The notes under the pieces are model-generated. The model did not search any database and was not told the DNA's origin. It saw only the letters and a list, made by a program, of their open reading frames with translations. Position numbers and translations under genes: made by a program. A DNA stretch of 64,000 nucleotides, from positions 2,164-66,163 of the forward strand of contig CAYURI010000001.1 of assembly GCA_964447275.1 (NCBI GenBank), in the 5' to 3' direction. Position 1 is the first letter of the stretch. The number at the start of each line of letters is the position of its first letter. Of the stretch, positions 7,402 to 60,536 are shown piece after piece. The stretch comes from an uncultured Muribaculaceae bacterium. GTDB lineage: Bacteria; Bacillota_I; Bacilli_A; RF39; UBA660.

Positions 7402-7404
7402 AAG

Positions 7405-7806: not shown

Positions 7807-7824
7807 TCTGACCTCCTAATTTTA

Positions 7825-7866: not shown

Positions 7867-7867
7867 T

Positions 7868-7893
7868 CTAAAAAAAAAGCCGTTAGGCTTTTT
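7868..7893 (-). terminator. Rho-independent terminator after the WXG-like gene
   Basis: AAAGCC-taac-GGCTTT hairpin overlapping the stop at 7892, followed on the minus strand by a T8 run. Confidence 0.55.
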
Positions 7894-8191: not shown

Positions 8192-8203
8192 ATTATCCTC
8201 TTT

Positions 8204-8494
8204 CTAAACTCTTGAAGCAGCACTGCTTGATTCATCTTGAACACGTTTAATCTTATTAGAAGCATTAACACAAAACTGCCCACAATTTCTAATTGAAGCC
8301 ACTAAAGCATCCAAAGTTGGTTTTTTTTCATGAATCCTTTGAACAAACTGTTTATTATCTGGTCCACTCCAGCCTTGCTCTAGAGCATCAATAATCGAAA
8401 ATATTTTTTTTAATTCTTGTTCTGCTAAATCACCATCATTTGTAACTGCTTTACCTAAATTGTCTAATTCAACAATATTTACTTTAAAACTCAT
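8204..8494 (-). CDS. esxA: WXG100 family protein EsxA
   Basis: 96 aa helical hairpin protein with a central W-S-G (LEQGWSGPDNKQF) at the typical WXG position. It is adjacent to essC/esaB. Confidence 0.7.
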   Translation of the reverse strand: MSFKVNIVELDNLGKAVTNDGDLAEQELKKIFSIIDALEQGWSGPDNKQFVQRIHEKKPTLDALVASIRNCGQFCVNASNKIKRVQDESSSAASRV

Positions 8495-8512
8495 AGTCCA
8501 CCTCTTTCTATA

Positions 8513-8785
8513 TTATATCAGTATTAATTTAATTCCGTCAACAATTCCTGCTTCTTTAATAGTTTTATTAATATCTAAAACTTCACCGTTGGAAGCATTT
8601 ATTAAGTTAAACTCTTTGTTTATGAGAAAAGCTCCATATGACAATTCATTAATGGCTTTAGTAATTAAACTAATTACTTTAAACACTTTTTTATTAGCTG
8701 GTATTAGTACTTCAAAACTATTTTCCATTGTTGGCACTAAAATTTCAATTAATATTTTGTTCATTATTGCCTCCTTTAGAATCAT
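8513..8785 (-). CDS. esaB: YukD/EsaB-like ubiquitin-fold T7SS protein
   Basis: About 83-90 aa (alternative start MNKILIEI at 8764). The size and hydrophobic pattern are typical of the YukD beta-grasp family, and it sits between essC and esxA. The 5' end overlaps the essC stop. Confidence 0.55.
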   Translation of the reverse strand: MILKEAIMNKILIEILVPTMENSFEVLIPANKKVFKVISLITKAINELSYGAFLINKEFNLINASNGEVLDINKTIKEAGIVDGIKLILI

Positions 8786-11700
8786 CTACTATTAATTTAA
8801 CTAGTACTGGATTACCTCTTTTTACTACATACCCAAAGTCATTAGCAATTTTTTTATTATATTCCTGGCTACTTTTAACTAGCTTTAAAGAAAACTGATT
8901 ACCAAGCCCACTACCAAGCCAAATACCTTCATCATCTCTTATTAATAATTTATACCATTCTTCATACTCCAACTTTTTAACATTTTCAATTGTATTAACA
9001 ATAACATAGCTTATTTTATTAAATGTTTCACCATTTTTAATAATGTTTTTGAATTTTTCAATATAAGTTGGATCTAATTTCTTAAATAAATGAGTTGTAT
9101 CAATTATTATGCAAATTAAATGCTTTATATTCGCTAAAGATTTTAAATCGTAATTACTGTTTTTATACATTTCAGCCATTTTTTCGACATTAGCATTAAG
9201 ATTATCTATAAAACCATTGAAATTAGTATCAAAATAAATAATATCATCAGCAAATTTATCTTTAGAAAATATTTTTTTGGCATCAATTACCACAGTAATA
9301 TTTTTATTCATACTAGAAAACTGATTAATAAATGGTGGCATATAACTCATGATCGGTTCTTCATCATCAGCTGTTATTAAAGTCCCATAATTATTTTCAA
9401 AATTCCAATTAGCGATCTGTAATGATTCTTTTTCAATACCAAGAGGAACTAAAGAAATACCATTTTGAGCATAAGCGACTTCTTTTCTCGTAACTTTTTC
9501 TGGTAATACTGGAACTCCAGAAGCGACTTTTTGGTTTTTTGCTTTTAACTTTTTACAAATTATTTTTATATAATCATTAACCATATCTGGTTCATATGGG
9601 TAAGCAGTTTGAAACTCATTAATTTCATCAAATTTTACTAATCCTCTACCAACGGCTTTAGAAGGATATTTACCATGAACATTACCAAATATAGAATTGT
9701 AATCAGAATTATCATTTAATTCTAAAACTAGATTTTGTTTAAAGTTTTGTTTTAATTTATATCTAATGTTATTGGCACCTGATACTGTTATTAAGAAGAC
9801 AACACCATATTTTGGCCCTTCTCTTGTTAAAACCACAAACATGTCTTCTAATTGATCATATGTTTCACTAAAAACTTCAAAATTATTAATAATCGCAACT
9901 ATTAAAGGTAGTTTCTCAGCTGAATTTCGATTATAAGAAACAAAATCACCATTATATTTAGAAAACAGCTTCTTTCTTTCTTCAATTGTTCTAAATAAAG
10001 TTTTTAATAAATTTAAGGTTTTTTCTTCCTCATGTAATAACACCACATCACCAACTTGAGGAGCATCTTTGAAAGCTGTTAATGTTTCAGCACCAAAATC
10101 CATAATATAAAAGTTTACCTCTGAAGATGAATGCTCAATTATTGAAGAATAAATAACATCTGTTAATAATAAGCTCTTTCCACTGCCATTACTACCATAA
10201 ATAATGGTGTTCCCACCCGTGGTTAAGTTTAATGTCAATAAGCCTTGTTTTTGGTTATCTGGATCATCATATTCACCAATAATTGGATTAATTAAATCAG
10301 ATAATTTTTGATAATTGTATTTCTTACGTAAATTATCTACATAAATAATATTAGGAATTCGATTCAACCATAATTGTTTTGGTTCTATTTTCTCTTCCTT
10401 AGCAATATTTATAATATAATTAATAATATTTGGTAAAACTTCGCCATAATTTTTCATATCAAAAATATTCTTTTCTTCTTTAACATTTTTAATAATACTA
10501 CCAATATTATCAATAAAAGAAATATAAGGGTCAATTTTCTTTTTTAATTTATCAAGAGGAATATATTTTTCACCACACCAAGCTGATTGGCCTAAAGTAA
10601 ACATTTCATTATAGCCAACTTGAAGATAAAAGCGGCCAACATCTTTTAAATAAGCAGCTTCAGGCCGTTTTATCATATCATTACTATCAGATTGCTCTTG
10701 AACTTTTAAGCAAATTCTAAATCTACTATTACTCCAAATTTGATCATCAACTACCCCACTTGGTTTTTGAGTTGATAAGATTAAATGGATACCTAGGCTT
10801 CTACCAATTCTTGCCGCACTTATTAATTCGTCCATGAAATCTGGTTGCTGAGCTTTTAATTCAGCAAACTCATCACAAATAATAAATAAGTGGGAAATTG
10901 GTTCTTTTATGATTCCTTCACGATATAATCTTTGATATTTATATATATCAATTGTACTTTCATTTAATTTACCTTTTTCTTTTTTAAATAATTCCTGTCT
11001 TCTTCTAATTTCACTTTGAATAGAAGCTAATGATCTTTTCATTTCAATTGTATCTAAGTTAGTTATAGTTCCAACAATATGAGGTAGTTTTATACCCAAT
11101 TCGCGGTTTTCAAAAGCTCCAGCAATACCACCGCCTTTATAGTCAATTAAAATGAATGTTACTTCATCAGGATGAAAGTTTACCGCCATAGATAAAATAT
11201 AAGTAATAATAAGTTCACTTTTACCACTACCTGTCATACCAGCAATTAAACCATGAGGTCCATGGAATTTTTCATGTAAATCTAATTTAATTAAATTACC
11301 AAATTCATCGATGCCAATTGGAGTTTGTAAACTCATAAAAGGCGAATTTGTCTCCCAACGATTTTTTATATTTAGTTGTTCGATCTTACCAATATTATAC
11401 ATCTCCAAAAAGCCATAAGTAGTTGGTAGTGTTTCAGCTCCTTTAGGAATTTCAAGTGGTGTACTTGCCAATACCTGAGAACATTCTTCTAAATGCAATT
11501 CTTCATTAATATCAGCAATAAACTGAACTTGTTTTTCCGAAGTTAAATCATTTTCAATTATTCCTGATTTTAAGTCATCCCCTACTGAAACAAAATTAAC
11601 GCATTCATTAGGCAAATTAGCTAATCTGTTATTAAGAATTATTAAAGAGAAGCCAACGTTGCTTGTTGCACTTAAAATACTTTTAATAATTTCTAAATCA

Positions 11701-13373
11701 CGATATTTTTTTATATCATCAGTAAAAATAACAAAATGAGGACTATAATTATTGTTTTTTTCAGCACTTTCATCTTTTCTTTGTTGAATAATGTTTTCTA
11801 AATAACTAGATATTTGTTTGGCATCATCTAAATTAGTACCAAAAAATCTAATTGATTTATTGCTATTCCAAGAGTGAGGAAGGACTTTTAAATAATCCCA
11901 ATGATTTTTTGTATTATCAGTAAAAACAATAATTTTTAAGTCATCAGGGCTATGAAAAGCCATTAATTGTAGCAAAACTCCATCAAAGAACTTTTGAACT
12001 GTATCTAAGTTGCCAACAATCGCCGAAATAGGTTTTTTAGCAAAAGAAAAATGAACTGGAGCATCGGGAATATTTTTATAATTATTTTTAATCGCTACTA
12101 GCGGTTTAATTAAATTATCAGTTTCTAAAGAAAACTTTTCTTCAGGTACTTGAATATTTATTTCTGAAGGTACTGGACCAATACCAAATCTAATATCTAA
12201 AAAATCTTCATGAAAAGGTTCTCTTTCCCATAAAGTTTTTTGTTTATTTATAATGATATTTCTTACTTCATTTAAATTTTGAAACTTTTCATTCAGAATC
12301 TGACGTTGAATACTAATAATAGTTTTAATTTCTTGATTCTTTTCTTCAATATATTTAGAATATAGTTCTTGACGTTTTTTTTCGCGAGCTATTTTTTGTT
12401 TTTTTTCTAACTTTTTACTTAACATTGGCCACATAATCATTGTTATTAACATCGATGAAGCAATTAAAAGCGATGGAATTGCCGTTGTTAAAGATTTGCC
12501 TTGTGAAATAACACTGTTTATTGATGTAAAAGCTGTTACTGCTGAAGTCATTCCCATTGTTAAAGCTGGCCCAACAACATATATTAAAGGCATTTCTTGC
12601 ATATTTTCTTTAGGTGGAACAGGATCAATTATTATTTCAGCTTTTTCAATATTACCTTTAAATCTTGGTGATTTATAATAATAATCATCTTTTTTATAAA
12701 TTTCAATGTCTTCATCATCATCACTAGCTTCTTCGATAGCCTTTTGACTAGGATATTTTTTTATTTCAAAAAAGTTACCTTTTAGTTTCAAATTATTTTT
12801 AGGATTATTAATAAATAAATTATCTAATAAAACAATTATTTTTAATCCCATGATAAAAATAACATCACCATATTTTAAATCACTGGTTTTTAAATTTTCA
12901 CCATTTATATAAAAACCATTATCACTTTTTAAATCAATTATTGACCATTTTTTTTCTTTATAACTTAATTTACAATGATTAGCATTAACCAAAGAAGAAT
13001 TAAAAATAATGTTATTATCTTCACTATTACCAATCGTTATTTCACCTTCACTTTTTATTGCCATTTGAAAATAAGAAGGATCATTTATAGGGCTACAATA
13101 AATCAAAATGATCTCACCATTTTTTAATTTTAATTCATAAAATTCATAATTATTTAAAAAAATTTCGTTAACTTTTTCTTTATTAAATAAAATCGTAACT
13201 TCAGCATCACTTTTTATTAGCCATTTATCATTTACCGCTTCAATTATAATTAGTGGTCTTTCATTGCCGTTAGCGTCTTTATCACTAAGCCAAAAACTGC
13301 CATATACTTTTATAGGCAACAATTGATCAGCAATTTGATTTTTTTTGATAATTGAAATTCTCACCGCTAACAC
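8745..13373 (-). CDS. essC: Type VII secretion FtsK/SpoIIIE-family ATPase EssC (YukB)
   Basis: 1542 aa with an apparent GTG start. It has N-terminal FHA-like repeats, two TM helices and three FtsK-like P-loop domains. The first domain carries LHEKFHGPHGLIAGMTGSGKSE...LIDYKGGG...HLFIICDEFAELK...GRSLGIHLILSTQKPSGVVD, near-identical to S. aureus EssC D1 motifs. Degenerate Walker A copies follow (GSNGSGKS). Confidence 0.9.
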   Translation of the reverse strand: MLAVRISIIKKNQIADQLLPIKVYGSFWLSDKDANGNERPLIIIEAVNDKWLIKSDAEVTILFNKEKVNEIFLNNYEFYELKLKNGEIILIYCSPINDPSYFQMAIKSEGEITIGNSEDNNIIFNSSLVNANHCKLSYKEKKWSIIDLKSDNGFYINGENLKTSDLKYGDVIFIMGLKIIVLLDNLFINNPKNNLKLKGNFFEIKKYPSQKAIEEASDDDEDIEIYKKDDYYYKSPRFKGNIEKAEIIIDPVPPKENMQEMPLIYVVGPALTMGMTSAVTAFTSINSVISQGKSLTTAIPSLLIASSMLITMIMWPMLSKKLEKKQKIAREKKRQELYSKYIEEKNQEIKTIISIQRQILNEKFQNLNEVRNIIINKQKTLWEREPFHEDFLDIRFGIGPVPSEINIQVPEEKFSLETDNLIKPLVAIKNNYKNIPDAPVHFSFAKKPISAIVGNLDTVQKFFDGVLLQLMAFHSPDDLKIIVFTDNTKNHWDYLKVLPHSWNSNKSIRFFGTNLDDAKQISSYLENIIQQRKDESAEKNNNYSPHFVIFTDDIKKYRDLEIIKSILSATSNVGFSLIILNNRLANLPNECVNFVSVGDDLKSGIIENDLTSEKQVQFIADINEELHLEECSQVLASTPLEIPKGAETLPTTYGFLEMYNIGKIEQLNIKNRWETNSPFMSLQTPIGIDEFGNLIKLDLHEKFHGPHGLIAGMTGSGKSELIITYILSMAVNFHPDEVTFILIDYKGGGIAGAFENRELGIKLPHIVGTITNLDTIEMKRSLASIQSEIRRRQELFKKEKGKLNESTIDIYKYQRLYREGIIKEPISHLFIICDEFAELKAQQPDFMDELISAARIGRSLGIHLILSTQKPSGVVDDQIWSNSRFRICLKVQEQSDSNDMIKRPEAAYLKDVGRFYLQVGYNEMFTLGQSAWCGEKYIPLDKLKKKIDPYISFIDNIGSIIKNVKEEKNIFDMKNYGEVLPNIINYIINIAKEEKIEPKQLWLNRIPNIIYVDNLRKKYNYQKLSDLINPIIGEYDDPDNQKQGLLTLNLTTGGNTIIYGSNGSGKSLLLTDVIYSSIIEHSSSEVNFYIMDFGAETLTAFKDAPQVGDVVLLHEEEKTLNLLKTLFRTIEERKKLFSKYNGDFVSYNRNSAEKLPLIVAIINNFEVFSETYDQLEDMFVVLTREGPKYGVVFLITVSGANNIRYKLKQNFKQNLVLELNDNSDYNSIFGNVHGKYPSKAVGRGLVKFDEINEFQTAYPYEPDMVNDYIKIICKKLKAKNQKVASGVPVLPEKVTRKEVAYAQNGISLVPLGIEKESLQIANWNFENNYGTLITADDEEPIMSYMPPFINQFSSMNKNITVVIDAKKIFSKDKFADDIIYFDTNFNGFIDNLNANVEKMAEMYKNSNYDLKSLANIKHLICIIIDTTHLFKKLDPTYIEKFKNIIKNGETFNKISYVIVNTIENVKKLEYEEWYKLLIRDDEGIWLGSGLGNQFSLKLVKSSQEYNKKIANDFGYVVKRGNPVLVKLIVDDSKGGNNEQNIN

Positions 13374-13454
13374 CTTACTATTCTTTTACTATGGTAAGTA
13401 TATCAAAATAATATTTTTATATCAATAAAAAAGCAAATTATTATTAAGAATGAT

Positions 13455-14384
13455 TTATTTCTGATTAATATCTATAAATCTTTTTATGCTTGACCAATAT
13501 TTTTTATAACCCATCCAATAACTAGACCCATGGCCAGCAGCTTTTATAAGAAGCTTTGACTTTACGCCATTTTTCCTCTTATATAACTCATATAGCATAG
13601 AAGAAGGAACAAAAGTATCTTTCCCACCATGAATAAATAGCATTGGAACTTTTGATCTTTCCACTGCATTTAATGGTTTTACGTTTTCTAACCAATATCC
13701 TGCCCTTATTTTAGTAATTAGACTTAAAATAGGGATTAATGGAAAAGATGGTAATTTATATAATACTTTGGCTTGATAAGAAAATTCCTTAGTTATGCTA
13801 CTATAACCACAATCTTCAATTATCCCCTTAGCATTATCTGGAAGTTTTTCTCCTGAAGCCATCATTACTGTTGAAGCCCCCATGGAAGCGCCAAATAAAA
13901 ATATTTTTATATCTTTATATGTTCTATTTAAAAATTCAAGCCATTTAATTAAATCAAACTTATCTAAGTAGCCAAGACCAATAAAACTTCCTTCACTTTT
14001 ACCACAAGCTCTAGCATCTATGAGTAACAGATTATAACCTAAATTATAAAATAATTTAGCTCCAGGAATAACAGAATTAATATTACCAAAATAGCCATGA
14101 CTAATTGTAACCCAAATATTACTCATTTTATTTTCAATAATTACTCCATGTAATTTGAGATTGTCATGAGATTTAATATAAACTTCTTTTTTATCGATTT
14201 TCTCATACCATAGTTTACCTTCTTCGATTAGTTTTTGGCGAAAATCTGAATCAGGTAATTTATTATGTTCAGCATCAAAAATAAATGCTTTATCTTTTTT
14301 AGCATTTATTGCAATATTGAAAAAATAATTAGCTAAAATAAACAGCATAATTAAAATCAAAACCATTATTGAAATCCAAATCAT
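13455..14384 (-). CDS. Membrane-anchored alpha/beta hydrolase
   Basis: 309 aa. N-terminal TM, GASMGAST (GxSxG nucleophile elbow) and HGG motif. Confidence 0.65.
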   Translation of the reverse strand: MIWISIMVLILIMLFILANYFFNIAINAKKDKAFIFDAEHNKLPDSDFRQKLIEEGKLWYEKIDKKEVYIKSHDNLKLHGVIIENKMSNIWVTISHGYFGNINSVIPGAKLFYNLGYNLLLIDARACGKSEGSFIGLGYLDKFDLIKWLEFLNRTYKDIKIFLFGASMGASTVMMASGEKLPDNAKGIIEDCGYSSITKEFSYQAKVLYKLPSFPLIPILSLITKIRAGYWLENVKPLNAVERSKVPMLFIHGGKDTFVPSSMLYELYKRKNGVKSKLLIKAAGHGSSYWMGYKKYWSSIKRFIDINQK

Positions 14385-14397
14385 AAATTCTCCTTTA

Positions 14398-15243
14398 TTA
14401 TTTTAATTTTTCAAATATAACAACATGGGAATGCCCAGTAAATCTTTTTTTGCATTCCTCATAAGTAATATTATCCTTTGTTATTTCAATATATTTTTCA
14501 TAATGCCTTTGTTCAACTTTAGTCTTTTTGTAACAATAAATTCTTAAATCATATTTATTTGCCATCCAGTTAAAAGTTTGTTTTGAAAATTCAAACTGAT
14601 GATGGGGAGGATAATGTAATTCCCCTTTTCCTGTTATTGCTAAGATGCTCTCTGGATCAGGCGTTCCAATAATTAGTTTGCCACCTTTTCTTAAAAGCTT
14701 AATATTTTCTTTAATAAACTTTTTTGTACCAAAAACATGTTCTAATACTTCATGATGACAAACAACATCAAATTTACTTTTCATCATTTTTATTGGTTTC
14801 GATATAACATTTAAACCCTTACTTTGACATAGTTTTACTGCGTTTTTATTGTATTCATTACCGATTACATTTGGAACAAAATTATTTATATATTCTAAAA
14901 AAGAACCATTACCAGAGCCTATTTCCATTAAATCTTTAGGATTAATTTTTTTAATAATTTCTAATGCTATTTTATAAGTTGGCCTAAAAACTGGATAATA
15001 GCCATCTACTTTTTCTAAATTTTCATATAATTTTTTAGAATCTGATATATGATAATTATAATAATATAATCCACAATTATCGCATTTTCTTTTTATTAAT
15101 ACTTTATTATTATAAATTATTGATATTGGATTGAATCCTCGTTTACTTACCCACATATCAATCAAATCATTAATATAAATACTTTTTACTTCTTTATAAT
15201 TTTTTGAATTGCATAGTGGGCATCTTTTAATTTCTTTTATCAT
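14398..15243 (-). CDS. Class I SAM-dependent methyltransferase with N-terminal Cys4 zinc ribbon
   Basis: True start is MIKEIKRCPLCN at 15243. The 48-codon upstream extension in the ORF track is the translation of the tRNA-Leu gene. CxxC...CxxC followed by a Rossmann MTase (EIGSGNGSF). Confidence 0.6.
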   Translation of the reverse strand: MIKEIKRCPLCNSKNYKEVKSIYINDLIDMWVSKRGFNPISIIYNNKVLIKRKCDNCGLYYYNYHISDSKKLYENLEKVDGYYPVFRPTYKIALEIIKKINPKDLMEIGSGNGSFLEYINNFVPNVIGNEYNKNAVKLCQSKGLNVISKPIKMMKSKFDVVCHHEVLEHVFGTKKFIKENIKLLRKGGKLIIGTPDPESILAITGKGELHYPPHHQFEFSKQTFNWMANKYDLRIYCYKKTKVEQRHYEKYIEITKDNITYEECKKRFTGHSHVVIFEKLK

Positions 15244-15264
15244 ACAATCTCCTAAGCTATTAAT

Positions 15265-15350
<86 letters not shown>

Positions 15351-15383
15351 TTAAAAAAATTATATCATTATAATATAATTTTC

Positions 15384-17561
15384 TCAATCTTCACTATTTT
15401 CTTCTTCAGTGGTAGTAACGGGATTTAAATAACTTTCATATTTATTGTTAAGTTTGAATGTTAAGGTGCTTTTTAAATCTATTGATGATCCTGGTAATAA
15501 AGATGTTTCATAAACATAGCCATAACCATCATATTCACATTTTAGCTTAATAAAGTTACAATAATTTTTTATTTCATTAGTTGTCCAACCAATTACATTT
15601 GGTAACGTATAATTAGTTCCATTAGTTAATAAATATAATTTATCATTAGCAATCATTTCCGTATTCTTTTTGGGGAATTGATCAATTATTTTAGTTCCAT
15701 CACCAATTATAATTGGCGTTATACCTAAAGCTTCTAATGCTGTTTTGGCTTCTTCAGTATTTTTACTAATGTAAGAACTAATTTTAATAACTTTAGATAC
15801 TTCTTTTTCTGTTTCTGTAATGTTTTTATAGGTGGCAATATCATCAACAATGCCTGATACCATATTAGCAACTGTTTTTAAAGAACCAACTAATTGTTTA
15901 ACCGAAACATAAACAATGTATTCAGGATCTTCATAAGGGAAAAGTCCGGCAAAACTACGAATATAATTATATTCGCCAGTCAAATAGCCACCACTACTAG
16001 AAGGTATTTGGGCTGTACCAGTTTTACCAATTAAAGTAACCGTTTTCGGTTGATAATATTTAGCAGTTGTTAATCCACTATAAACAACATCTTTCATCAT
16101 ATCTTTTAATTTATTAATAGTCTCACTACTAGCTACTTTTTTCACTTCAGTTTTTTTAGATTTATATAATACTTCACCAGTATCATGATCAACTATTTTA
16201 TCAACAATGTATGGTTTTAACATCATACCATCATTAGCTAATGCTGTTAAAGCTTGAATATTTTGAATTGGAGTGGTTGTAATTCCTTGGCCAAAAGCAG
16301 CATTAGATATTTCAATATCATATTTAAAATTAATTGTCCCCGCTGATTCATTAGGTAGTTCAATTCCTGTTTTAGAACCAAACCCTAACAATTCATAATA
16401 AGCTTTTAAACGATCCTTACCAAGTTTTTGAGCTAGTTTAGCAGCAGCAACATTTGAAGAGTAAGAAAAGCCCTGATCATAAGTAATTACACCCCAACCA
16501 ACATTATTAAAATCTTTAATAGTAATATCACCGATATTTAGAGTTCCTGATTGATACGTATCAGTACCATTATAAACACCATTTTCCATGGCTGCCATAA
16601 AAGAAAATACCTTCATTGTACTTCCTGGTTCATAAGCATATTGAGTAAGTGGTGTTAAATAACTATTAATGTCTAGTGTATTAGGATCAAAGCTAGGTGA
16701 TGAAGCACTACCAACAATTGCGCCAGTTTTAGCATCAGCTACCGTAATTGTCATCCAAGCCAAATCATAAGCATCGTCAATTTCTTTAACCGCATTTTCT
16801 AGTTTTAATTGAATAGTATTATCAATTGTTAAGAAAATATCAGCCCCATCAATTGGCTCATCTGTAATTGATGGCGTATTAGGAATTTGATAACCATAAG
16901 CATCTTTTTGATACTCAGTATAACCATCAGTTCCAGCTAGATAATTATCATAATAAGCTTCTATACCCATTTCACCAATTATTTTCCCACTATCATTTTT
17001 CTTGGCATAACCAAGAACATAGGAAGCAAAGTTCCCCATTTGATAATATCTTTTTGTGCTAGAAACAAATCCTATTCCTGGTAAATTGGCTTTTTCAATT
17101 TCTTCTTTGACAAGCTCAGTTATCCCTCTACCACTAGGTCCTAGTTCCACTTGATAAGCATCTTTATTTAATAAAGCTAAAATATCGTCTTTAGTCATTT
17201 TATTATTCTTGATATATTTATTAAATATTTCATATAATTTATTAGCAGTATTTTCTTTATCTACTACATGCTCCGGATTATTTTTATTAGTAGTTCTACT
17301 TTCTTCTAAGAAAGCTATTACTGTATAAGAATTAACATTTTGAGCAAGAACTTCCCCACTTATATCATAAATGGTCCCTCTTGCTGCATACAAAGTGGTT
17401 TTTACGGTATCACGATTCTTAGCAAAAGCTTTTAAATCAACGCCATCAACATTATGAGTAATAGCAATAAAAACCATCTTAATGATTATTAAACCAAATA
17501 AAAAAACAATACCAAGAAGAAAAATATTATTGATTTTTACTGTATTGTTTTTATTTTTCAT
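15384..17561 (-). CDS. ftsI: Class B penicillin-binding protein (FtsI/PBP2B-type transpeptidase)
   Basis: 725 aa. N-terminal TM, dimerisation domain, and transpeptidase motifs STMK (SxxK), SSN (SxN) and KTGT. It follows ftsL in the dcw cluster. Confidence 0.85.
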   Translation of the reverse strand: MKNKNNTVKINNIFLLGIVFLFGLIIIKMVFIAITHNVDGVDLKAFAKNRDTVKTTLYAARGTIYDISGEVLAQNVNSYTVIAFLEESRTTNKNNPEHVVDKENTANKLYEIFNKYIKNNKMTKDDILALLNKDAYQVELGPSGRGITELVKEEIEKANLPGIGFVSSTKRYYQMGNFASYVLGYAKKNDSGKIIGEMGIEAYYDNYLAGTDGYTEYQKDAYGYQIPNTPSITDEPIDGADIFLTIDNTIQLKLENAVKEIDDAYDLAWMTITVADAKTGAIVGSASSPSFDPNTLDINSYLTPLTQYAYEPGSTMKVFSFMAAMENGVYNGTDTYQSGTLNIGDITIKDFNNVGWGVITYDQGFSYSSNVAAAKLAQKLGKDRLKAYYELLGFGSKTGIELPNESAGTINFKYDIEISNAAFGQGITTTPIQNIQALTALANDGMMLKPYIVDKIVDHDTGEVLYKSKKTEVKKVASSETINKLKDMMKDVVYSGLTTAKYYQPKTVTLIGKTGTAQIPSSSGGYLTGEYNYIRSFAGLFPYEDPEYIVYVSVKQLVGSLKTVANMVSGIVDDIATYKNITETEKEVSKVIKISSYISKNTEEAKTALEALGITPIIIGDGTKIIDQFPKKNTEMIANDKLYLLTNGTNYTLPNVIGWTTNEIKNYCNFIKLKCEYDGYGYVYETSLLPGSSIDLKSTLTFKLNNKYESYLNPVTTTEEENSED

Positions 17562-47070: not shown

Positions 47071-48933
47071 TTAAAATCTTCCACCACCGGAGCCGCCGCC
47101 ACCAAAACCACCGCCACCAAATGATGAACCGCCACCAAAGCCACCTGAACTACTTTGGGCTGATTTAGCAATTGCTGATGTAACAGACTCTGTAACTGCA
47201 CTACTTATCGCGTGAGATATTTGCGAATTCATATTCATATAATATAGTGGCATGAAGGTGTTGTGATAAATCTTTCCTTCCGGATCAATTTCATGAATTT
47301 TAACATTCATCGCTTTTTCAACTTTATCAGCAACACCAAATACTACTGCATAGACTAAATATCTTTCCCATAATTTAACCTCTGGCAAATCTTTTTCTTT
47401 AAAATTACCAAAATCATTTAAGAACTTTTTAAAAGCTTTCCATTTAGTATAATGTTCAGCGCCTCTTTTTGTTCTTCTTTTAAAAGCAATCATATAAATG
47501 AACAAAATAAGAGCAACTGGAAACAATAAATAACCAAAAACGATATCAGTTTGATAATAAAGATTTAAATAAAATAATCCACCACCTAAGAAAGCATATA
47601 AGACGCCAAAGAATTTTGGTTTAACTAAGTCTTCATAAAATTTTTGACTTTTGCCATCAACAATAACTGAATTTTTCCAAGTTGTATAATTTGATAAGAA
47701 AGTTTGTGATTTTGTTCCTTTTGCATAATCTTTTAATTCTCTTAAAGTAAATCGGTCTCCTGTCCCTACTTTATCAAAAAGAAAACTAATTAACTTCTTT
47801 TCAGTATCAGTAATTCCTTCATTAGATTTTAAAATAAATATATAAGATTCTTTATTTTTATCCATAATTTTTTCGATTTCAATTTTCTTTTTATAAATTA
47901 AATTCATTATAGAAGCGCTCATGGCATTAGGAGTAATACTTTTATTAAATAAATAATCAACTACTTCAACTTCATAATCATCAATAAATTCACGATAATA
48001 GTCACCATTAAAATCAATCTTATATTCTTTATCATATTTAAAATAATATCTTACAGCGATTGCAATTGCTCCAAGTAAATAACCACCAAATAAGATAGTA
48101 AGAATTGTATATTTAGTTTTGATGCTTTGTCTTAATTCATTGGCTTTATCTGCACGAACTTTTTCAACTGCTAAAATATTAGCTAACCCATCGACATTAG
48201 ATCTTTTGTTAGCATCACTAACTAAGGCTTTATCAAATACTACTCTAACATCAACTGCTTGTTTAGCAGGTAAATTAGTCCATATAGCTTTTACTTCACC
48301 TTGATTAACTATCTCATTTGAACCATTTAAAGGTCCATGAGAAAATACTCTTAAATCACTACTATTACCTGGTAACTTTATGACAATAATTAATTCATTT
48401 ATATCATCTTCATAATCACTACCAAGAAAATCCCAAGCTATTTCAGCAACATCATTATGAAGTACTACAACATCTTTTAAAGTATAAGTTACCAAAGAAG
48501 CTTTATTATTATAACTAGGCATATAAATTGATAAATCAACCCCAGTAGAACTAGCTTCTTCCAAGTAAACACCATAATCACCAACATTAGCACTAGATGT
48601 TTTTGTAAATAAAGTTCCGCGATCAGTAATACCATCAAAGCTTAAATCATCAGCACTTATAGCATAAACTTTAACATCTTCTATAGCGGTCGCATTATAT
48701 ATAGAGCTCCCATCAAAATCATCTTGAACGCCGGTAAAAGTTTGCAAAGCATAATTGGTATATCTTAAATTAGTGTATATACCATTATACTCACCTTCTA
48801 ATAGTTTTAATTCCTTAACTTCCATATCACCATTAGCTTTTACTGTGGCTTCAATATAATATCTATCAGTCGTACTAGCATGAACAGTAATTGGAAACAA
48901 TAAAAGTACAAAAAACAAGATTATCTTTTTCAT
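47071..48933 (-). CDS. DUF2207-like membrane protein with Gly-rich C-terminal tail
   Basis: 620 aa. Signal/TM, large extracellular domain, two internal TM helices and a terminal GGGSSFGGGGFGGGGSGGGRF tract, an architecture typical of DUF2207. Confidence 0.5.
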   Translation of the reverse strand: MKKIILFFVLLLFPITVHASTTDRYYIEATVKANGDMEVKELKLLEGEYNGIYTNLRYTNYALQTFTGVQDDFDGSSIYNATAIEDVKVYAISADDLSFDGITDRGTLFTKTSSANVGDYGVYLEEASSTGVDLSIYMPSYNNKASLVTYTLKDVVVLHNDVAEIAWDFLGSDYEDDINELIIVIKLPGNSSDLRVFSHGPLNGSNEIVNQGEVKAIWTNLPAKQAVDVRVVFDKALVSDANKRSNVDGLANILAVEKVRADKANELRQSIKTKYTILTILFGGYLLGAIAIAVRYYFKYDKEYKIDFNGDYYREFIDDYEVEVVDYLFNKSITPNAMSASIMNLIYKKKIEIEKIMDKNKESYIFILKSNEGITDTEKKLISFLFDKVGTGDRFTLRELKDYAKGTKSQTFLSNYTTWKNSVIVDGKSQKFYEDLVKPKFFGVLYAFLGGGLFYLNLYYQTDIVFGYLLFPVALILFIYMIAFKRRTKRGAEHYTKWKAFKKFLNDFGNFKEKDLPEVKLWERYLVYAVVFGVADKVEKAMNVKIHEIDPEGKIYHNTFMPLYYMNMNSQISHAISSAVTESVTSAIAKSAQSSSGGFGGGSSFGGGGFGGGGSGGGRF

Positions 48934-52043: not shown

Positions 52044-53771
52044 TTACTTAACTTGGAAATATCTTAATACTGAATTAGCAATACTAGTTCCAATTTCATT
52101 AATATTATCAACAATCCATTTAGCATCTGCTTTATTATCATGATAAGCAATTTCAATTAAAACACCCATTTTAATATTTAGAGGATGAACTTCGCCCATT
52201 CGGCCTCTCGCAAACATTACACCTCTACCAACTGTTCTACCGGATTTTTGATATAAACTGAATAAATCGTTATATATAGTTTGAGCTACAGAGTAAGCTT
52301 CACTTATTTCTTCATGAACATAAATTTCCATGCCTTCCATATTATGACCAGCACTACCATTAGAGTGAATGGCTAAATGTAGATCTGATTTAACATCACG
52401 GCTTTCAGTAAGCCATATTTTCATATTTTCATCAGGATTATTACGATATACTTTTATACCATTTGCTTTTAATATTTCTTCGACAACATCAGTAACTTTA
52501 TTCATCATTTCTCTTTCATTAGTATAACCAACACTTTTAACCCCAATATTAGACTTTTGGTTAGATGGTGATAAATAAACAACTGGTACTTTATCAGCAA
52601 TTTTAATATCAAAAGTCGTTGTAATACTATTATTCATGTTTTCTTTTATTGCTACTGCTGTTAAGATTACATCATTATTAATTGTAAGTGGTTCAGTATA
52701 CATAGAACCATATACTAAAGGATCTTTACCATCTAGACTATACATGATTTTAGCTCCTAAAGTATTAGTGTATAAGTTAAACTTACTACCAGGCTTTAAA
52801 CTAGCAAAATCAACATCTGTATAGACTTCTTCAACTGGACTTTTTTTGCCAATTGTTATTGCAACAGTGTCACTACGATATATCTCTTTATAATCTTTAT
52901 AACCAGCAACCAACTCTAAAGTATAAGTTGTATCTTCTTCAAAAAAATTAATATTTAATTCAGTTTCTTTTTCAGTAATACCAATAATGCGATTTAATTT
53001 ATTACCTTTATTAGTATTTTTATAAACATAAAGTAAAATAGAATCAGCATTAGCTCCACCTTTATAACTAAAGATAAAATTATTCCAACTAACATTAGCT
53101 GTTACTGGACTTAGAATTTCAATGTTACCAATAATAACTGTATTAATATAAAAGTTAAAAGAACTAATTTTTTGGTTGTTCCCATTAACAATGATGGCAC
53201 TTAAACGTCCTGAATAATTAGCAATTAAATCATAAGGGATTTCGTTTATTTGGTCAGTAATATCTTGTTCATAAATTAAATTACTACCATTTTTTATTTG
53301 TAACTTGTAATTTTCTTTTGTAAAGTCACCATCAATAATAATGGGATACATAGTATCTTTTTGGACATAAATACTATTTGATTTATTAAAAGATGGACTA
53401 TTCCAAGTAAAAGTATAGGTGTTACTTGCTTCTAATTCATTTTTATCATCATGAATAGCAATAACTTTTACTTTTAAAGGTTTTAAATAATAATAATTTA
53501 AATCTTTAATAATCCCTTCATTAGTATCATATTTTTTATCAACTAAAACGCTGTTATCTTCATCATAAACAATTACTTCATAGTTTTTGGCATAAAAGTT
53601 TTTTTCTACTTTAAAGATAACTTCACCAGAAGCCTCTTCAACTTTTAAGATTTTAAATGGTTTTAAACGGTGATCACCAATTTTTAAAAAGCCAATATAA
53701 AAACATAAAGAAAATAATAATATTCCGATAACAAATAAAGCAATAATAATATTATTTTTCTTTATGTACAT
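52044..53771 (-). CDS. Membrane-anchored N-acetylmuramoyl-L-alanine amidase (Amidase_3) with N-terminal repeat/Fn3-like region
   Basis: 575 aa. TM anchor, Ig/Fn3-like repeats and a C-terminal Amidase_3 domain (VVYLSPSNQ...DLHLAIHSNGS...GMEIYVHEE). Confidence 0.65.
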   Translation of the reverse strand: MYIKKNNIIIALFVIGILLFSLCFYIGFLKIGDHRLKPFKILKVEEASGEVIFKVEKNFYAKNYEVIVYDEDNSVLVDKKYDTNEGIIKDLNYYYLKPLKVKVIAIHDDKNELEASNTYTFTWNSPSFNKSNSIYVQKDTMYPIIIDGDFTKENYKLQIKNGSNLIYEQDITDQINEIPYDLIANYSGRLSAIIVNGNNQKISSFNFYINTVIIGNIEILSPVTANVSWNNFIFSYKGGANADSILLYVYKNTNKGNKLNRIIGITEKETELNINFFEEDTTYTLELVAGYKDYKEIYRSDTVAITIGKKSPVEEVYTDVDFASLKPGSKFNLYTNTLGAKIMYSLDGKDPLVYGSMYTEPLTINNDVILTAVAIKENMNNSITTTFDIKIADKVPVVYLSPSNQKSNIGVKSVGYTNEREMMNKVTDVVEEILKANGIKVYRNNPDENMKIWLTESRDVKSDLHLAIHSNGSAGHNMEGMEIYVHEEISEAYSVAQTIYNDLFSLYQKSGRTVGRGVMFARGRMGEVHPLNIKMGVLIEIAYHDNKADAKWIVDNINEIGTSIANSVLRYFQVK

Positions 53772-55989: not shown

Positions 55990-56034
55990 TTATTATAAAC
56001 CAAAAGCAAAGAAAAATCACTATAAAGTAGTGAT

Positions 56035-57567
56035 TTAACTATTTCTTATTACAACAATTCCTTTTACTCCGGAGCCACCAGTTGAAGCGCCGTTCCATCC
56101 GGCACCACCTGCACCACCACAACCCGTATTTGAACCGCTGCAGCCAGCACCATTACCACCAAATGCACCAGATACGCCGCCTGTCATTCCTGGGCCACCG
56201 CCACCGCCACCCGCATAAGGAGTTATTCCTAAGTTGCAGCCAGCTGTTGTTCCTTGATTAAATTCACAAGTTGTAACGCCTGAACCGGCCCCACCACTTG
56301 ATTCCCCACGGCCATTAGCCCCGCCGGAACCACCATATGATCCACCGCCACCAGAATTAGCTGGCGAACAATTACAACCACCGGCGCCACCGCCAGAGCC
56401 GCCATGAGCTCCATTATGATCGCCTGTTCCATAACCACCAACTGCCGATTGACTAAAGGCTGTTGATGTTCCACCATTTGAGGCTGCTCCGCCTCCGCCT
56501 CCAATTGTTACTGTATAATCAGCATTAATCGTTAAAACAATATCTTGGGCATAAGCAGTATGGCCTCCGCCTCCGCCTCCGCCACCATGCCAATCTCCAG
56601 AACTAGTTGATGCTCCGCCGCCGCCGCCGCCGACCAAATAAGCATCAATAGTCATAGCAACTAGAGGTCTAAAGACACCACTATTTAAAAACTTAACTCG
56701 CCAGTTACCATTGCCATCATTTAAAACTAAAAAGTCTGTTCCTGGTGTAGCTGCCACACCACCAATTTTATAAGTAAACATAGCATCATAAGCATAAAAT
56801 TGAGCAGTAATGGTGGTGTTTTCAGTTCCCATCATAAACTTGGTCCCATTCATAGCGCTTTCTGCGCCAGAAATAAGCCAACCAGTAAAAACATAGCCAA
56901 TTTTGGTTGGATTAGTAATAGTTACTTCTTGTTTATAGGCTAATACTTGAGGTGTTACTCCACTCCATGTCCCACCATTAGCGTTAATAGTTAATTTATG
57001 ATATGTAGTAGAAGAAAAGTTATAACCACCAGCATATGGATAATAAACAACGATTGGATAAGTATTTCCCTTGCTATCATAAATATTTAATTCAAGTTTT
57101 AATAAACTATCATATTTATAATCATAAGAAGAATTAGCTGGATCAAAATATCTTGTTGTATATGCTAAGTCATCAAAACTTCCCAAATATCCAGTTTCAT
57201 CTTTTTCTGGTGTTTGTCTAATATCTCCCATTATCGTATTACCACCAGAATCTTTTTTAACCACGCTTAAAACTTTATTATCATTTTGAATCTTTATTTC
57301 CAAATAACTACCACTAGCAAAAGTGATTTTTAAACAAGTATTAGTAGAGTCACAAGTTTCAATTAAATCGACTTGTTCTTCCATTAAAATATTTTGAATT
57401 TTTTTGGTAATAACTGTAGCAGCCACCTTATATTCAACTTTACTTGTATTACCTAAGTCTTGATATTTAAGTTCAATTAATAATTGAAATAAAAAAACTA
57501 CCACAATCGAAATTAATGCGATTGATACAATAAGTTCAATTAAAGTTAGCCCTTTATTCTTCTTCAT
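56035..57567 (-). CDS. Prepilin-type N-terminal-cleavage/methylation-domain protein with Gly/Cys-rich C-terminal low-complexity tail
   Basis: 510 aa. Class-III signal MKKNKG|LTLIELIVSIALISIVVVF, a roughly 300-aa beta-rich middle and a roughly 200-aa tail that is more than 50% Gly with paired Cys (GGCNCS, TTCEF...AGCN, GAGCSGSNTGCGG). Confidence 0.5.
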   Translation of the reverse strand: MKKNKGLTLIELIVSIALISIVVVFLFQLLIELKYQDLGNTSKVEYKVAATVITKKIQNILMEEQVDLIETCDSTNTCLKITFASGSYLEIKIQNDNKVLSVVKKDSGGNTIMGDIRQTPEKDETGYLGSFDDLAYTTRYFDPANSSYDYKYDSLLKLELNIYDSKGNTYPIVVYYPYAGGYNFSSTTYHKLTINANGGTWSGVTPQVLAYKQEVTITNPTKIGYVFTGWLISGAESAMNGTKFMMGTENTTITAQFYAYDAMFTYKIGGVAATPGTDFLVLNDGNGNWRVKFLNSGVFRPLVAMTIDAYLVGGGGGGASTSSGDWHGGGGGGGGHTAYAQDIVLTINADYTVTIGGGGGAASNGGTSTAFSQSAVGGYGTGDHNGAHGGSGGGAGGCNCSPANSGGGGSYGGSGGANGRGESSGGAGSGVTTCEFNQGTTAGCNLGITPYAGGGGGGPGMTGGVSGAFGGNGAGCSGSNTGCGGAGGAGWNGASTGGSGVKGIVVIRNS

Positions 57568-57683
57568 AAGTCCTCTATTCTATTTTTATTATATCTTTTT
57601 ATCTTTTTATAGTCAATAACGGAAAAAAGTTTATAAAATTCTTGAATTAAAAATTATAATGTTATATAATCTTACTTGTGTAT

Positions 57684-57760
57684 GTCCTGGTAGCTCAGTT
57701 GGATAGAGCATATGCCTTCTAAGCATACGGTCGGGGGTTCGAGCCCCTCCCAGGACGCCA
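57684..57760 (+). tRNA. tRNA-Arg (anticodon TCT)
   Basis: GTCCTGG-TA-GCTCAGTTGGATAGAGC-A-TATGC-CTTCTAA-GCATA-CGGTC-GGGGGTTCGAGCCCCCT-CCAGGAC-G-CCA. Canonical cloverleaf with anticodon loop cuUCUaa and encoded CCA. Confidence 0.9.
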
Positions 57761-59599: not shown

Positions 59600-60073
59600 C
59601 TAGTTTAAGCATCCATCCCAGTTAGCAGTTGCAGCTGCTGTTGTGTCAATTGTTGTTGCATCAACAGAAATGTTACCACCTTTATTTGTTGAACTAGCTG
59701 TTACCGAACGGCTGCCATCAGTATACCAAATATAGTAATTATTATTGGTTGAATCAATTAAAACTGAGCCAACTTTACCAGTAAAACTCTTATCAATATA
59801 ATCAGTTAAACTTGTAATGCTATAGCAATATCCAGTAATTGAGCTACCACTAATTGTTGCAGATACAGCAGTTGGTAATGTGCTTTCTAATAAGTCATCA
59901 GAATATTTTAATTTAGCGCCATCAATAATATTTTCAGCTTCAATTTCAAATGCATTGTCTTTTGCTCCATCCATCATCTTCAAAACACTTGGTACTGCAA
60001 GCAAGACTAACACAGCAAGAATAACAATTACGGCTAATAGCTCTACTAAAGTGAATCCCTTTTTCTTTTTCAT
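59600..60073 (-). CDS. ComGC-like type IV pilin/pseudopilin, paralog A
   Basis: 157 aa. Class-III signal MKKKKG|FTLVELLAVIVILAVLVLLAVP, N-terminal alpha-helix and a divergent C-terminal globular part with a Cys pair. Confidence 0.65.
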   Translation of the reverse strand: MKKKKGFTLVELLAVIVILAVLVLLAVPSVLKMMDGAKDNAFEIEAENIIDGAKLKYSDDLLESTLPTAVSATISGSSITGYCYSITSLTDYIDKSFTGKVGSVLIDSTNNNYYIWYTDGSRSVTASSTNKGGNISVDATTIDTTAAATANWDGCLN

Positions 60074-60089
60074 ATTATTTCCTTTCTAT

Positions 60090-60536
60090 TTAACTTTCCG
60101 AAGTTATAGGGCATGTTGCAAAATCAGTAGTTGATGTATTTAATGTACCATCTAATGCTAACTCACCAGCTGTGTCTTCAGTTATTGATCTAGCAGCATC
60201 AGTATACCAAACTAACGTTGACGTATCACCAATTAGAACTGATCCTTTATGACTAGCTGAAAAAGTTTTGTCAACGTAACCATTGGTTTGTAGATAAGTT
60301 ATACTATAGCAATAACCATTAGCTGTAGAACGTGTGGTATCGCTATTAAGTAGATCATCAGCATATGCTGATTTCGCTGCTTTAGCAATATTTTCTGCTT
60401 CAATTTTAAAGGCATTGTTTTTAGCTCCATCCATCATCTTTAAAACGCTTGGTACAGCAAGTAAAACTAATACAGCTAAGATTACTATTACCGCTAAAAG
60501 TTCTACTAAAGTAAATCCTTTTTTCTTTTTCTTCAT
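60090..60536 (-). CDS. ComGC-like type IV pilin/pseudopilin, paralog B
   Basis: 148 aa. The first roughly 50 residues are nearly identical to paralog A (MKKKKKGFTLVELLAVIVILAVLVLLAVPSVLKMMDGAKNNAFKIEAENI); the C-terminus diverges. Confidence 0.65.
   Translation of the reverse strand: MKKKKKGFTLVELLAVIVILAVLVLLAVPSVLKMMDGAKNNAFKIEAENIAKAAKSAYADDLLNSDTTRSTANGYCYSITYLQTNGYVDKTFSASHKGSVLIGDTSTLVWYTDAARSITEDTAGELALDGTLNTSTTDFATCPITSES

Follow-up and report, generated by a model that had tools for sequence, protein, structure and literature searches.

A candidate modular minor type IV pilin with a glycine-rich domain resembling phage tail-fibre tips in uncultured gut Bacilli

The locus raises the question of what purpose a protein may serve that begins with a prepilin signal and ends in a tail in which 36.7% of the last 210 residues are glycine. 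The complete gene for this 510-aa protein lies at 56035..57567 of the window, by which we mean the whole 64-kb stretch of DNA that was analysed. Like all other features for which coordinates are given here, it is encoded on the minus strand; the earlier note had reported the open reading frame correctly, with the strand left out. The stop codon is located at 56035..56037. Upstream of the gene, direct reading of the sequence revealed a Shine-Dalgarno sequence (AGAGGA, 57571..57576) and, at 57588..57616, a promoter-like site (TTGACT, 17 nt spacer, TATAAT) that reached 11 of 12 positions in a consensus scan and is regarded as a candidate from this match alone. The open reading frame is genuine. 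A public collection contains an identical protein (P0001), and a Pfam scan recognised three parts, N_methyl, Flg_new and Gly_rich_2, each of which scored over its curated cut-off. The DNA encoding the tail has a G+C content of 50% within a genome of 27% G+C, indicating that the composition of the reading frame is beyond chance. Tandem repeats in the glycine-coding DNA were restricted to trivial runs of 6 nt repeated three times, and no slippage-prone array was present.

The class III (prepilin) signal comprises residues 1-27 (57487..57567) and reads MKKNKG followed by LTLIELIVSIALISIVVVFLF, with glycine at position -1, glutamate at +5 and approximately 21 hydrophobic residues. Cleavage is predicted after Gly6, which would separate the leader MKKNKG (residues 1-6) from the hydrophobic alpha1-N (residues 7-27). 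Besides the type IV prepilin motif itself (MKKNKG, then LTLIE), Pfam N_methyl (30.8 bits, cut-off 21.2, E 1.9e-7) and TIGR02532 (22.5 bits, cut-off 16.3) recognised this region, so that the class III prepilin peptidase signal proposed in the earlier note is borne out by two curated families. The family profile additionally matched solved type IV pilins, namely the Geobacter pilin (6.8e-7) and Streptococcus sanguinis PilE1 (1.1e-6). The signal forms part of a pilin module extending over residues 1-187 (57007..57567), for which the evidence comes from AF2 models, invariant alignment columns and stand-alone homologues (P0122-P0127). The models show an alpha1 helix at residues 9-63 with a kink at 35-41, followed by about eight strands up to residue 178. 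This layout of helix and then sheet is pilin-like and was predicted with pLDDT values of 73-85, the model of the module by itself being based on 8 sequences only and reaching a pLDDT of 73. Columns that are invariant in 8 orthologues include the pair C72-C78 and the motifs RQ[TI]PEKDETGYLG and SYDYKYDSL. With the pilin module alone, Foldseek returned no significant match; the top four were chains of the minor pseudopilins XcpV/XcpW (5bw0) with E 0.016-0.034 and TM-scores of about 0.3. Similarly, the NCBIfam equivalogs for ComGE (21.1, cut-off 49) and ComGF (15.4, cut-off 80) stayed under their cut-offs and covered the N-terminal helix only. When 1.84 billion representatives were searched exhaustively, only seven relatives of the pilin module emerged. 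Five of them are pilin-like proteins of 171-202 aa that stand alone, and wherever the contig was long enough to contain neighbours, their genes adjoin a second pilin-like gene of approximately 160 codons.

Between the pilin module and the tail, residues 188-262 (56782..57006) form one Listeria-Bacteroides or InlB B-repeat, which the earlier note had overlooked in a domain account that was otherwise correct with respect to the prepilin signal. The repeat was recognised by Flg_new_2 (32.0 bits, cut-off 23.6), Flg_new (28.0, cut-off 27) and TIGR02543 (26.1, cut-off 20.95), and the family profile matched the InlB B-repeat of 2y5p at 1.9e-4. It is present twice in three homologues (P0002-P0004) and represents a putative spacer or stalk.

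The remaining residues 263-510 (56038..56781) constitute a compact C-terminal domain of beta-strands and glycine-rich motifs, as judged from Gly_rich_2, AF2 and Foldseek. Gly_rich_2 (PF21722) matched residues 303-508 with 36.5 bits (cut-off 24.3, E 6.6e-9) and positions 13-224 of the 226 positions of the model. The abundance of glycine had been described correctly before, whereas the curated Pfam domain had been missed, and it may be a general lesson that what looks like an "extreme glycine tail" can prove to be well folded and already catalogued as a domain. AF2 predicted a compact fold with pLDDT values mostly above 90. Searched with Foldseek, the tail matched the fibre of cyanophage Pam3 (7ypx_A, E 9e-5) and the tail tip of mycobacteriophage Bxb1 (9d93_Qb, E 1.3e-4), both with a probability of 1.00 and with TM-scores, normalised to the target, of 0.34-0.44. 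In BFVD, 155 predicted viral proteins matched at E <1e-3 (best 1.9e-15). Hence, the tail is structurally similar to the glycine-rich receptor-binding fold of the Pam3 gp24 type, and it matched no PDB chain in sequence searches with either the single protein or the family profile. A tblastn comparison of the tail with 50,697 phage records likewise gave no match, which carries no weight because the low-complexity filter is the probable cause. An extended, polyglycine-II-like backbone of the glycine motifs in a packed lattice would be expected of the phage-type fold; in the model, DSSP classed most of this region as 'other' at pLDDT values above 90. In the conservation profile, the domain shows some ten conserved glycine-rich motifs, separated by variable loops that are its indel hotspots; the mean frequency of the most common residue was 0.75 at glycine positions versus 0.50 at other positions. 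Nearly invariant non-glycine residues are Y266, D284, T337, Y351, Q429, T432-T433, E435-F436, N480 and R508. The protein contains eight cysteines (72, 78, 398, 400, 434, 444, 476 and 483). Only two of them, C72 and C78 of the pilin module, are kept in all close orthologues. The six cysteines of the tail noted before are thus real, whereas their pairs are lineage-specific: they sit in loops that are prone to indels and missing from most relatives. Three disulfides are predicted in these loops (398-400, 434-444 and 476-483). The C-terminus (...GIVVIRNS) has neither an LPXTG motif nor a hydrophobic tail.

The combination of these modules recurs in related bacteria. A homologue search gave 230 matches, from which 121 sequences were retrieved, nearly all of them from uncultured gut Bacilli. 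In approximately 84 of the 121, a class III motif opens the protein and the same domains follow; glycine at -1 and glutamate at +5 were found in 78, and six more have alanine at -1. Contrary to what had been supposed, the glycine-rich tail is therefore not an unusual partner of a pilin-like protein in this lineage, and the architecture is recurrent. The cassette of repeat and glycine-rich domain is found attached to three or more different pilin scaffolds, and some other family members have N-termini resembling major pilins. In P0008, the Flg_new and Gly_rich_2 cassette follows an N-terminus whose first 160 residues share 40% identity (E 6.5e-36) with the pilin-like neighbour protein of approximately 160 aa, and this points to the pattern of grafting by which modular pilins are defined (PMC8179133). 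By that definition, an N-terminal IPR012902 is combined with at least one extra domain that is not pilus-specific, and in terms of sequence the succession of N_methyl, Flg_new and Gly_rich_2 conforms to it. Among the functions considered in the earlier note, a minor pilin or tip adhesin fits best, and we regard it as somewhat probable that the 510-aa protein is a modular minor type IV pilin presenting an adhesin. Most likely, it is a fast-evolving type IV pilus adhesin, and it adds a member that is so far uncharacterised to a known class instead of representing a novel type of molecule.

In the proposed mechanism, prepilin peptidase would cut after Gly6, and the hydrophobic alpha1 together with the small pilin module (residues 7-187) would place the protein in a type IV filament made up of short pilins, for example the two whose genes lie at a distance of 2 kb. 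Since its cargo is bulky, the filament tip would be the likeliest position of the modular pilin. The InlB B-repeat would serve as a spacer, while the C-terminal domain, predicted to form a compact lattice of glycine-rich strands, would be the working end, with variable, partly disulfide-stapled loops that may bind a ligand in the same way as phage tail-fibre tips of the same fold bind receptors. Candidate ligands are components of the host or of mucus, or another cell's surface. Among related lineages, the distal modules would diversify and be exchanged, with the pilin module staying compatible with the filament.

The genes for the two short pilins lie approximately 2 kb from the gene for the 510-aa protein, and the proteins of both scored over the cut-off of TIGR02532. 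The first (60090..60536) encodes a protein of 148 aa beginning with KKGFTLVELLAVIVILAVL, is located in conserved synteny and has a dN/dS of 0.12 against the closest genome (L002); its matches to ComGC, ComGE and GspG were all under the cut-offs. It is a candidate filament subunit for the modular pilin. The second (59600..60073) encodes a candidate major subunit of 157 aa that shares 95% identity with its orthologue in L002 (dN/dS 0.05). The purifying selection on both short pilins implies a working filament system. In the other direction, the gene for the 510-aa protein ends 45 bp upstream of genes for a DrrA-like ABC ATPase and an ABC-2 permease, a pairing retained in all three of the closest genomes examined. 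Both positional statements of the earlier note, upstream of the ABC pair and apart from the two short pilin genes, hold. Immediately past the stop codon and ahead of the ABC ATPase gene, a terminator-like hairpin of -8.8 kcal/mol followed by a U-run (56001..56036) was recognised from the sequence and by RNA folding. It is comparable in strength to the hairpin 3' of efp (-8.9 kcal/mol) and had been overlooked by the consensus scan because its stem is rich in A+T. A functional link to the ABC pair is not supported, since the gene has a promoter-like site and a terminator-like hairpin of its own and distant family members lack the ABC neighbour. The locus as a whole shows conserved synteny amid the housekeeping genes parE, parC, nfo, efp and suf and is devoid of phage genes. 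A suspected frameshift in parE at the end of the window was rejected, as the frame is open up to the window edge. In the window, no gene for a PilB/ComGA ATPase, a PilC/ComGB platform protein or a prepilin peptidase was found, and phmmer searches with E. coli HofB, GspE, HofC, GspF and GspO against all open reading frames of the window and of 79 loci around relatives, which amount to approximately 715 kb, gave no match even at E <=10. With no PilB, PilC or PilD in the window or in these 715 kb, pilus assembly is consequently a step that we infer.

This absence of the machinery also speaks for an alternative function of the prepilin-type N-terminus, which could do no more than anchor the protein in the membrane or direct its export, so that the binding domain would be displayed in the membrane or on a very short pseudopilus and no long pilus would be formed. 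In accordance with such a role, family genes are scattered among housekeeping genes, none of them adjoins pilus machinery in the members examined, and in some relatives (for instance P0053, P0055, P0066 and P0084) the cassette follows an ordinary signal peptide or a membrane anchor. However, the conservation of glycine at -1 and glutamate at +5 and the existence of the pilin module as a stand-alone protein are hard to explain without filament assembly, and the strong purifying selection on the two short pilins speaks for a filament that works. We consider an anchor without a pilus rather unlikely, although it is the likeliest of the three alternatives.

The two other alternatives concern the tail and its origin. 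Its very high glycine content had suggested a spacer, flexible or structural, or a fibre of the S-layer type without a specific binding role, and DSSP indeed left most of residues 313-503 of the AF2 model without an assigned helix or strand. This is contradicted by the confidently predicted compact fold, by the match to Gly_rich_2 together with the similarity to phage tail fibres and tail tips, by the near-invariance of specific residues other than glycine from Y266 to R508, and by the Pfam scan, which listed no S-layer, SLH or cell-wall-anchor family for the protein at E <=1. We regard a role as mere spacer or S-layer-like fibre as very improbable. The same phage proteins, being the best structural matches of the tail, could instead identify the gene as a remnant or domesticated prophage tail-fibre gene, and the conserved proximity of the ABC pair could mean that the protein is cargo coupled to the downstream exporter. 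For either origin, one would have to reconcile a locus of conserved housekeeping synteny that contains no phage genes, an N-terminus that is a pilin and not a fibre shaft, a terminator-like hairpin between the gene and the ABC pair, and the lack of an ABC neighbour in distant members. For ABC-2 exporters of the DrrA type, export of folded proteins of 50 kDa is not known. A prophage remnant or an ABC cargo is very improbable as well.

For a modular minor pilin exposed on the cell surface, the divergence at the locus is informative. Compared to L002, the neighbouring genes are 93-98% identical (dN 0.01-0.03), whereas the 510-aa protein is only 56% identical, with 76% identity in the pilin module, 48% in the repeat and 44% in the tail; for the whole gene, dN was 0.33 and dS 1.03. 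In two more distant genomes (L018 and L009), the distal modules are 50-63% identical and thereby closer than those of L002, and the syntenic orthologue P0009 (L005) has a PF12810-type tail in place of Gly_rich_2. A further homologue of 756 aa with another pilin scaffold (P0017) and a 98% identical ParC (P0130) are both reported from a JGI contig of 7,678 bp; if they share this contig, the gene would have been replaced as a whole at the locus. In a scan of GTDB, the close clade was found in only two species representatives, one of which shows synteny with the window with neighbouring genes that are 76-85% identical. By comparison of these sequences, the gene is a divergence hotspot with surface-type evolution, in which the divergence is incongruent across genomes. 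Near-identical neighbours next to an adhesin of 44-56% identity indicate that the locus is likely under diversifying selection or recombination. A more far-reaching proposal, which we make only tentatively and consider less likely than not, is that pilus tips of uncultured gut Bacilli use the receptor-binding fold of phage tail fibres as a cassette that is swapped among scaffolds, related species and possibly phages, giving rise to a hypervariable adhesin locus in genomes that are otherwise nearly identical. The occurrence of the cassette on at least three scaffolds, the incongruent divergence and the one orthologue with a replaced tail are compatible with such swapping. If the protein is indeed a pilus adhesin, its sharp contrast with near-identical neighbours would make the locus useful for strain tracking and for studies of the arms races between phages and hosts or between hosts and microbes.

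Among known systems, minor pilins and pseudopilins (GspJ/XcpW, ComGE, ComGF) share with the protein an N-terminal helix of the minor-pilin style (LIELIVSIALISIVVVFLF), and the stand-alone homologues are likewise paired with a second pilin-like gene, although the matches to XcpV/XcpW were not significant and those to ComGE and ComGF remained under their cut-offs. The extracellular TNF-like plus glycine-rich region of ALK/LTK (PF12810, ALK_LTK_GRD) corresponds to the type of tail found in P0009. In contrast, the 510-aa protein matches PF21722 and not PF12810, the ALK/LTK proteins are eukaryotic cytokine receptors, and Foldseek gave no significant match of the tail to a chain of ALK or LTK. The predicted fold of residues 263-510 matches the phage tips Pam3 gp24 (7YPX) and the Bxb1 tail tip (9D93). 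Phage glycine-rich tips combine conserved glycine motifs with a hypervariable distal tip (PMC9608196), and the tail resembles them in having conserved glycine motifs with variable distal loops. It differs from the phage tips in a sequence identity of only about 21-32%, in being carried by a pilin instead of a fibre shaft and in having no evident chaperone gene. Furthermore, Pam3 gp24 forms a trimer, while at a pilin tip one or a few copies would be expected. Gp38 of the Salmonella phage S16 (6F45) was absent from the significant matches and is linked to the tail via the Pam3 paper.

The closest functional parallel is offered by the modular type IV pilins PilB (pilin and vWA) and PilC (pilin and lectin) of S. 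sanguinis (PMC8179133, PMC9934059). As in these proteins, a class III signal and a small pilin module are followed by a bulky C-terminal effector that is not pilus-specific, in a monoderm host. In contrast to PilB and PilC, the gene described here is located outside any pil operon, solved pilins are only remote relatives of its pilin module, and its effector is a predicted glycine-rich phage-fibre-like fold placed after an InlB B-repeat, a type not yet characterised on any pilus. The architecture of a pilin with a glycine-rich domain as such is already catalogued: the supplementary catalogue of Raynaud et al. (2021; PMC8179133) lists IPR012902-PF12810 for 3 proteins in two architectures, and it also contains IPR012902 with two copies of IPR013378 for 9 proteins. 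If the 510-aa protein is indeed a modular pilin, a glycine-rich binding domain of the phage-fibre type would join the effectors of type IV pili, of which vWA and lectin modules have been studied so far, and would provide an entry point to the attachment of an uncultured low-G+C lineage of gut Bacilli.

The 510-aa prepilin-type protein proposed in the earlier note is encoded by a real open reading frame (56035..57567); the corrections concern the strand, which is minus, an overlooked B-repeat and the cysteines, which are not conserved. Its N-terminus, MKKNKG/LTLIELIVSIALISIVVVFLF, consists of a basic leader with a terminal glycine, a glutamate at +5 and about 21 hydrophobic residues. The proposed class III prepilin signal is supported by Pfam N_methyl (30.8 bits, cut-off 21.2) and TIGR02532 (22.5, cut-off 16.3), and on inspection the sequence past the hydrophobic stretch contained no small-residue site for the rival cleavage by signal peptidase I. 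The glycine-rich tail was confirmed as well, with 36.7% glycine in the last 210 residues and six of the eight cysteines of the protein. The tail DNA has a G+C content of 50%, compared with 27% for the genome, which accounts for the local G+C peak in the window. Glycine codon choice is similar to that of parC, thus nothing in it marks the gene as foreign. A strong promoter-like site (TTGACT-17-TATAAT, matching the consensus), a putative ribosome-binding site (AGAGGA) and a hairpin 3' of the stop codon (-8.8 kcal/mol, followed by a U-run) make the gene look monocistronic.

In the AlphaFold2 model (71 sequences, mean pLDDT 84.9), residues 1-187 form a pilin module in which a helix (9-63, with a kink at 35-41) packs against about eight strands. 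C72, C78 and the motifs RQ[TI]PEKDETGYLG and SYDYKYDSL were invariant among eight close orthologues. Residues 188-262, overlooked in the earlier note, contain one copy of a Listeria-Bacteroides/InlB B-repeat, for which Flg_new_2, Flg_new and TIGR02543 all scored above their cut-offs; the repeat is duplicated in the family members P0002-P0004. The family profile matched solved type IV pilins (Geobacter pilin, 6.8e-7; S. sanguinis PilE1, 1.1e-6) and a solved InlB B-repeat (1.9e-4). An exhaustive phmmer search with residues 28-190 against 1.84 billion representatives retrieved only seven relatives of the pilin module. Five of these are stand-alone and pilin-like (171-202 aa); they share the class III N-terminus and have an RRQLPE-like motif. 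The pilin module thus probably represents a genuine but rare family of pilins.

In three of four contexts, downstream of lon, the stand-alone pilin genes directly follow a second pilin-like gene (about 160 aa, KGFVMVE...); the fourth contig is shorter than 1 kb. The family member P0008, which has 815 aa and bears Flg_new and Gly_rich_2, resembles this second protein over its own first 160 residues (40% identity, E 6.5e-36), and further members have major-pilin-like helices (GFTLIELLAVIVILAI...AVPK). Such pairs (about 160 aa and about 190-200 aa) were observed in the related uncultured Bacilli contigs L012 (5377..6469), L013-L015 and L017, where they follow lon and two genes of 200 aa (LysM-like) and 299 aa; both pair members have an Flg_new and Gly_rich_2 fusion relative elsewhere, namely P0008 and the window protein. 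L012-L014 carry an additional Gly_rich_2 protein just upstream of lon.

A homologue search with the target gave 230 matches, from which 121 sequences were retrieved, the majority with N_methyl, Flg_new and Gly_rich_2. Nearly all are unnamed gut-metagenome proteins, and the few names given are 'InlB B-repeat-containing protein [Bacilli bacterium]' and 'glycine-rich protein'. The motif G[FLM..][TS]..E was located close to the N-terminus in 78 of the 121, and six more have alanine at -1. A metagenome scan for new Gly_rich_2 loci found a pilin N-terminus in about 6 of 62, the remainder being mostly proteins of 260-400 aa without one. Since P0008-type, major-pilin-like and window-type N-termini share the cassette, at least three pilin scaffolds have received one and the same effector cassette by grafting.

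The host is an uncultured Bacilli bacterium with 27% G+C, and the window contains genes for peptidoglycan synthesis as well as a type VII secretion locus. The gene order parE, parC, pilin, pilin, nfo, (rpmG,) efp, target, ABC ATPase, ABC-2 permease, amidase, suf is conserved and recurs in two further assemblies (GCA_030154545.1 and GCA_964493665.1). This conserved position beside an ABC exporter pair would fit a functional connection with it, but such a reading is not supported: the gene looks monocistronic, and the more distant family members, found between tig and lon, between dnaN and gidA or at other sites, all lack an ABC neighbour. On L004, a contig from a more distant member of the gut Bacilli (Nepal/Hadza study), tandem paralogues of 660 and 962 aa with pilin, B-repeat and Gly_rich_2 modules occupy the tig-lon site (10001..15104), which holds a single copy in L010. 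A tRNA-Arg(TCT) (57684..57760, plus), on the strand opposite to every neighbour, lies in the 250 bp separating efp from the target, a spacing shared by L002 and L005. Two genes downstream of the target, a 575-aa protein with C-terminal Amidase_3 domain (52044..53771, minus) is likely a cell-wall hydrolase; its L002 orthologue (94% identity) also has CHB_HEX_C_1 and Fn3_assoc. The GTDB representative L008 (CAZBOZ010000002.1), which carries a syntenic orthologue, is titled 'uncultured Muribaculaceae bacterium', a label that looks wrong because gene order and neighbours (76-85% identical) match the Bacilli-like window.

Elsewhere in the window, the type VII (ESX-like) locus (6202..13373, minus) encodes an EssC/FtsK-like ATPase (8745..13373, minus; 1542 aa), two WXG100-size proteins (7892..8494, minus; about 96-99 aa) and, downstream, uncharacterised proteins of 133 and 399 aa, possibly substrates or toxins; the 399-aa protein had no NCBIfam match. 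A tRNA-Leu(GAG) (15265..15350, minus) detected by ARAGORN, absent from the Rfam results at the gathering threshold, lies within the listed ORF 14398..15387 at its 5' end, so this methyltransferase-like gene probably starts at a downstream Met. A DUF2207-type membrane protein (47071..48933, minus), assigned by the domain in its L002 orthologue and without NCBIfam match, ends in a short glycine-rich tail (...SSGGFGGGSSFGGGGFGGGGSGGGRF) unrelated to Gly_rich_2.

The target locus is hypervariable when module identities to the window protein are set against those of neighbouring genes. For pilin module, B-repeat and tail, identities were 76, 48 and 44% in L002 (neighbours 93-98%), 65, 60 and 51% in L018 (74-85%), 61, 63 and 50% in L009 (about 83%) and 66, 51 and 30% in L005 (76-85%), whose tail is a different domain of PF12810 type. 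Relative to L002, dN and dS were 0.33 and 1.03 for the whole target gene and 0.01-0.03 and 0.25-0.5 for its neighbours. The distal modules of L018 and L009 are nearer to the window protein than those of L002, though the genomes are more distant. Such a mismatch suggests that alleles or modules have been exchanged and that diversifying pressure has acted, as would be expected of a binding protein that is exposed. P0017, a 756-aa family member whose N-terminus differs and is major-pilin-like, and P0130, a ParC 98% identical to that of the window, are both reported from a JGI contig 7,678 bp long; should they share one contig, a near-identical strain would have the whole target gene replaced at this locus.

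The interval between parC and nfo, distant from any pilus machinery, contains two adjacent short pilin genes (59600..60536, minus; 148 and 157 aa, KKGFTLVELLAVIVILAVL...). Their products matched only the generic TIGR02532 model, with ComGC, ComGE and GspG below cut-off, and are conserved in synteny with dN/dS of 0.05-0.12; the more distant L018 has a single copy. No genes for PilB/ComGA, PilC/ComGB or PilD/ComC were found in the 64-kb window, and phmmer with five E. coli reference proteins (HofB, GspE, HofC, GspF and GspO) detected none in about 715 kb of loci. Pilus assembly is therefore inferred from the signal motif, from conservation of the pilin module and from the occurrence of short pilins that evolve under purifying selection. 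Among the functions suggested earlier, a tip adhesin or minor pilin is the best supported, by the prepilin signal, the conserved pilin module and the grafted effector cassette, and we consider it somewhat better than an even bet.

The alternatives of a flexible glycine domain or an S-layer-like fibre concern the tail. Helix and strand assignments are absent over most of its model, as flexibility might suggest; residues 263-510 match Pfam Gly_rich_2 (36.5 bits, cut-off 24.3), and AlphaFold2 predicts a compact domain with pLDDT mostly above 90 except at 463-481, so that neither alternative was borne out. Foldseek against the PDB gave two significant matches, the cyanophage Pam3 fibre gp24 (7ypx_A, E 9e-5) and the mycobacteriophage Bxb1 tail tip (9d93_Qb, E 1.3e-4), which likewise speak against an S-layer-like fibre. 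Among predicted viral structures, 155 matched at E <0.001 (best 1.9e-15), the majority tailed-phage proteins named 'glycine-rich domain-containing protein'. The six tail cysteines are present as described; all fall within segments absent from most of the 71 relatives, so their pairs are not conserved and represent lineage-specific loop features rather than a family trait.

The grafting of an effector onto a pilin defines modular pilins, and IPR012902-PF12810 and IPR012902-IPR013378 architectures are already in the supplementary catalogue of Raynaud et al. (2021; PMC8179133). The target is an uncharacterised member of the known class of modular type IV pilins, and our literature search found no published study of a pilin with a polyglycine-type domain. 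What sets it apart is the phage-fibre-like fold of its effector module and the markedly hypervariable, mosaic locus. The Pam3 fibre, whose fold has been linked to phage S16 gp38 and the ALK ectodomain, combines a lattice of conserved glycine motifs with a hypervariable distal tip (PMC9608196). The window protein is likewise conserved at glycines and variable between them: across the 71 relatives, the mean frequency of the top residue was 0.75 at glycine positions and 0.50 elsewhere, with indel hotspots after residues 361, 380, 404, 459 and 478.
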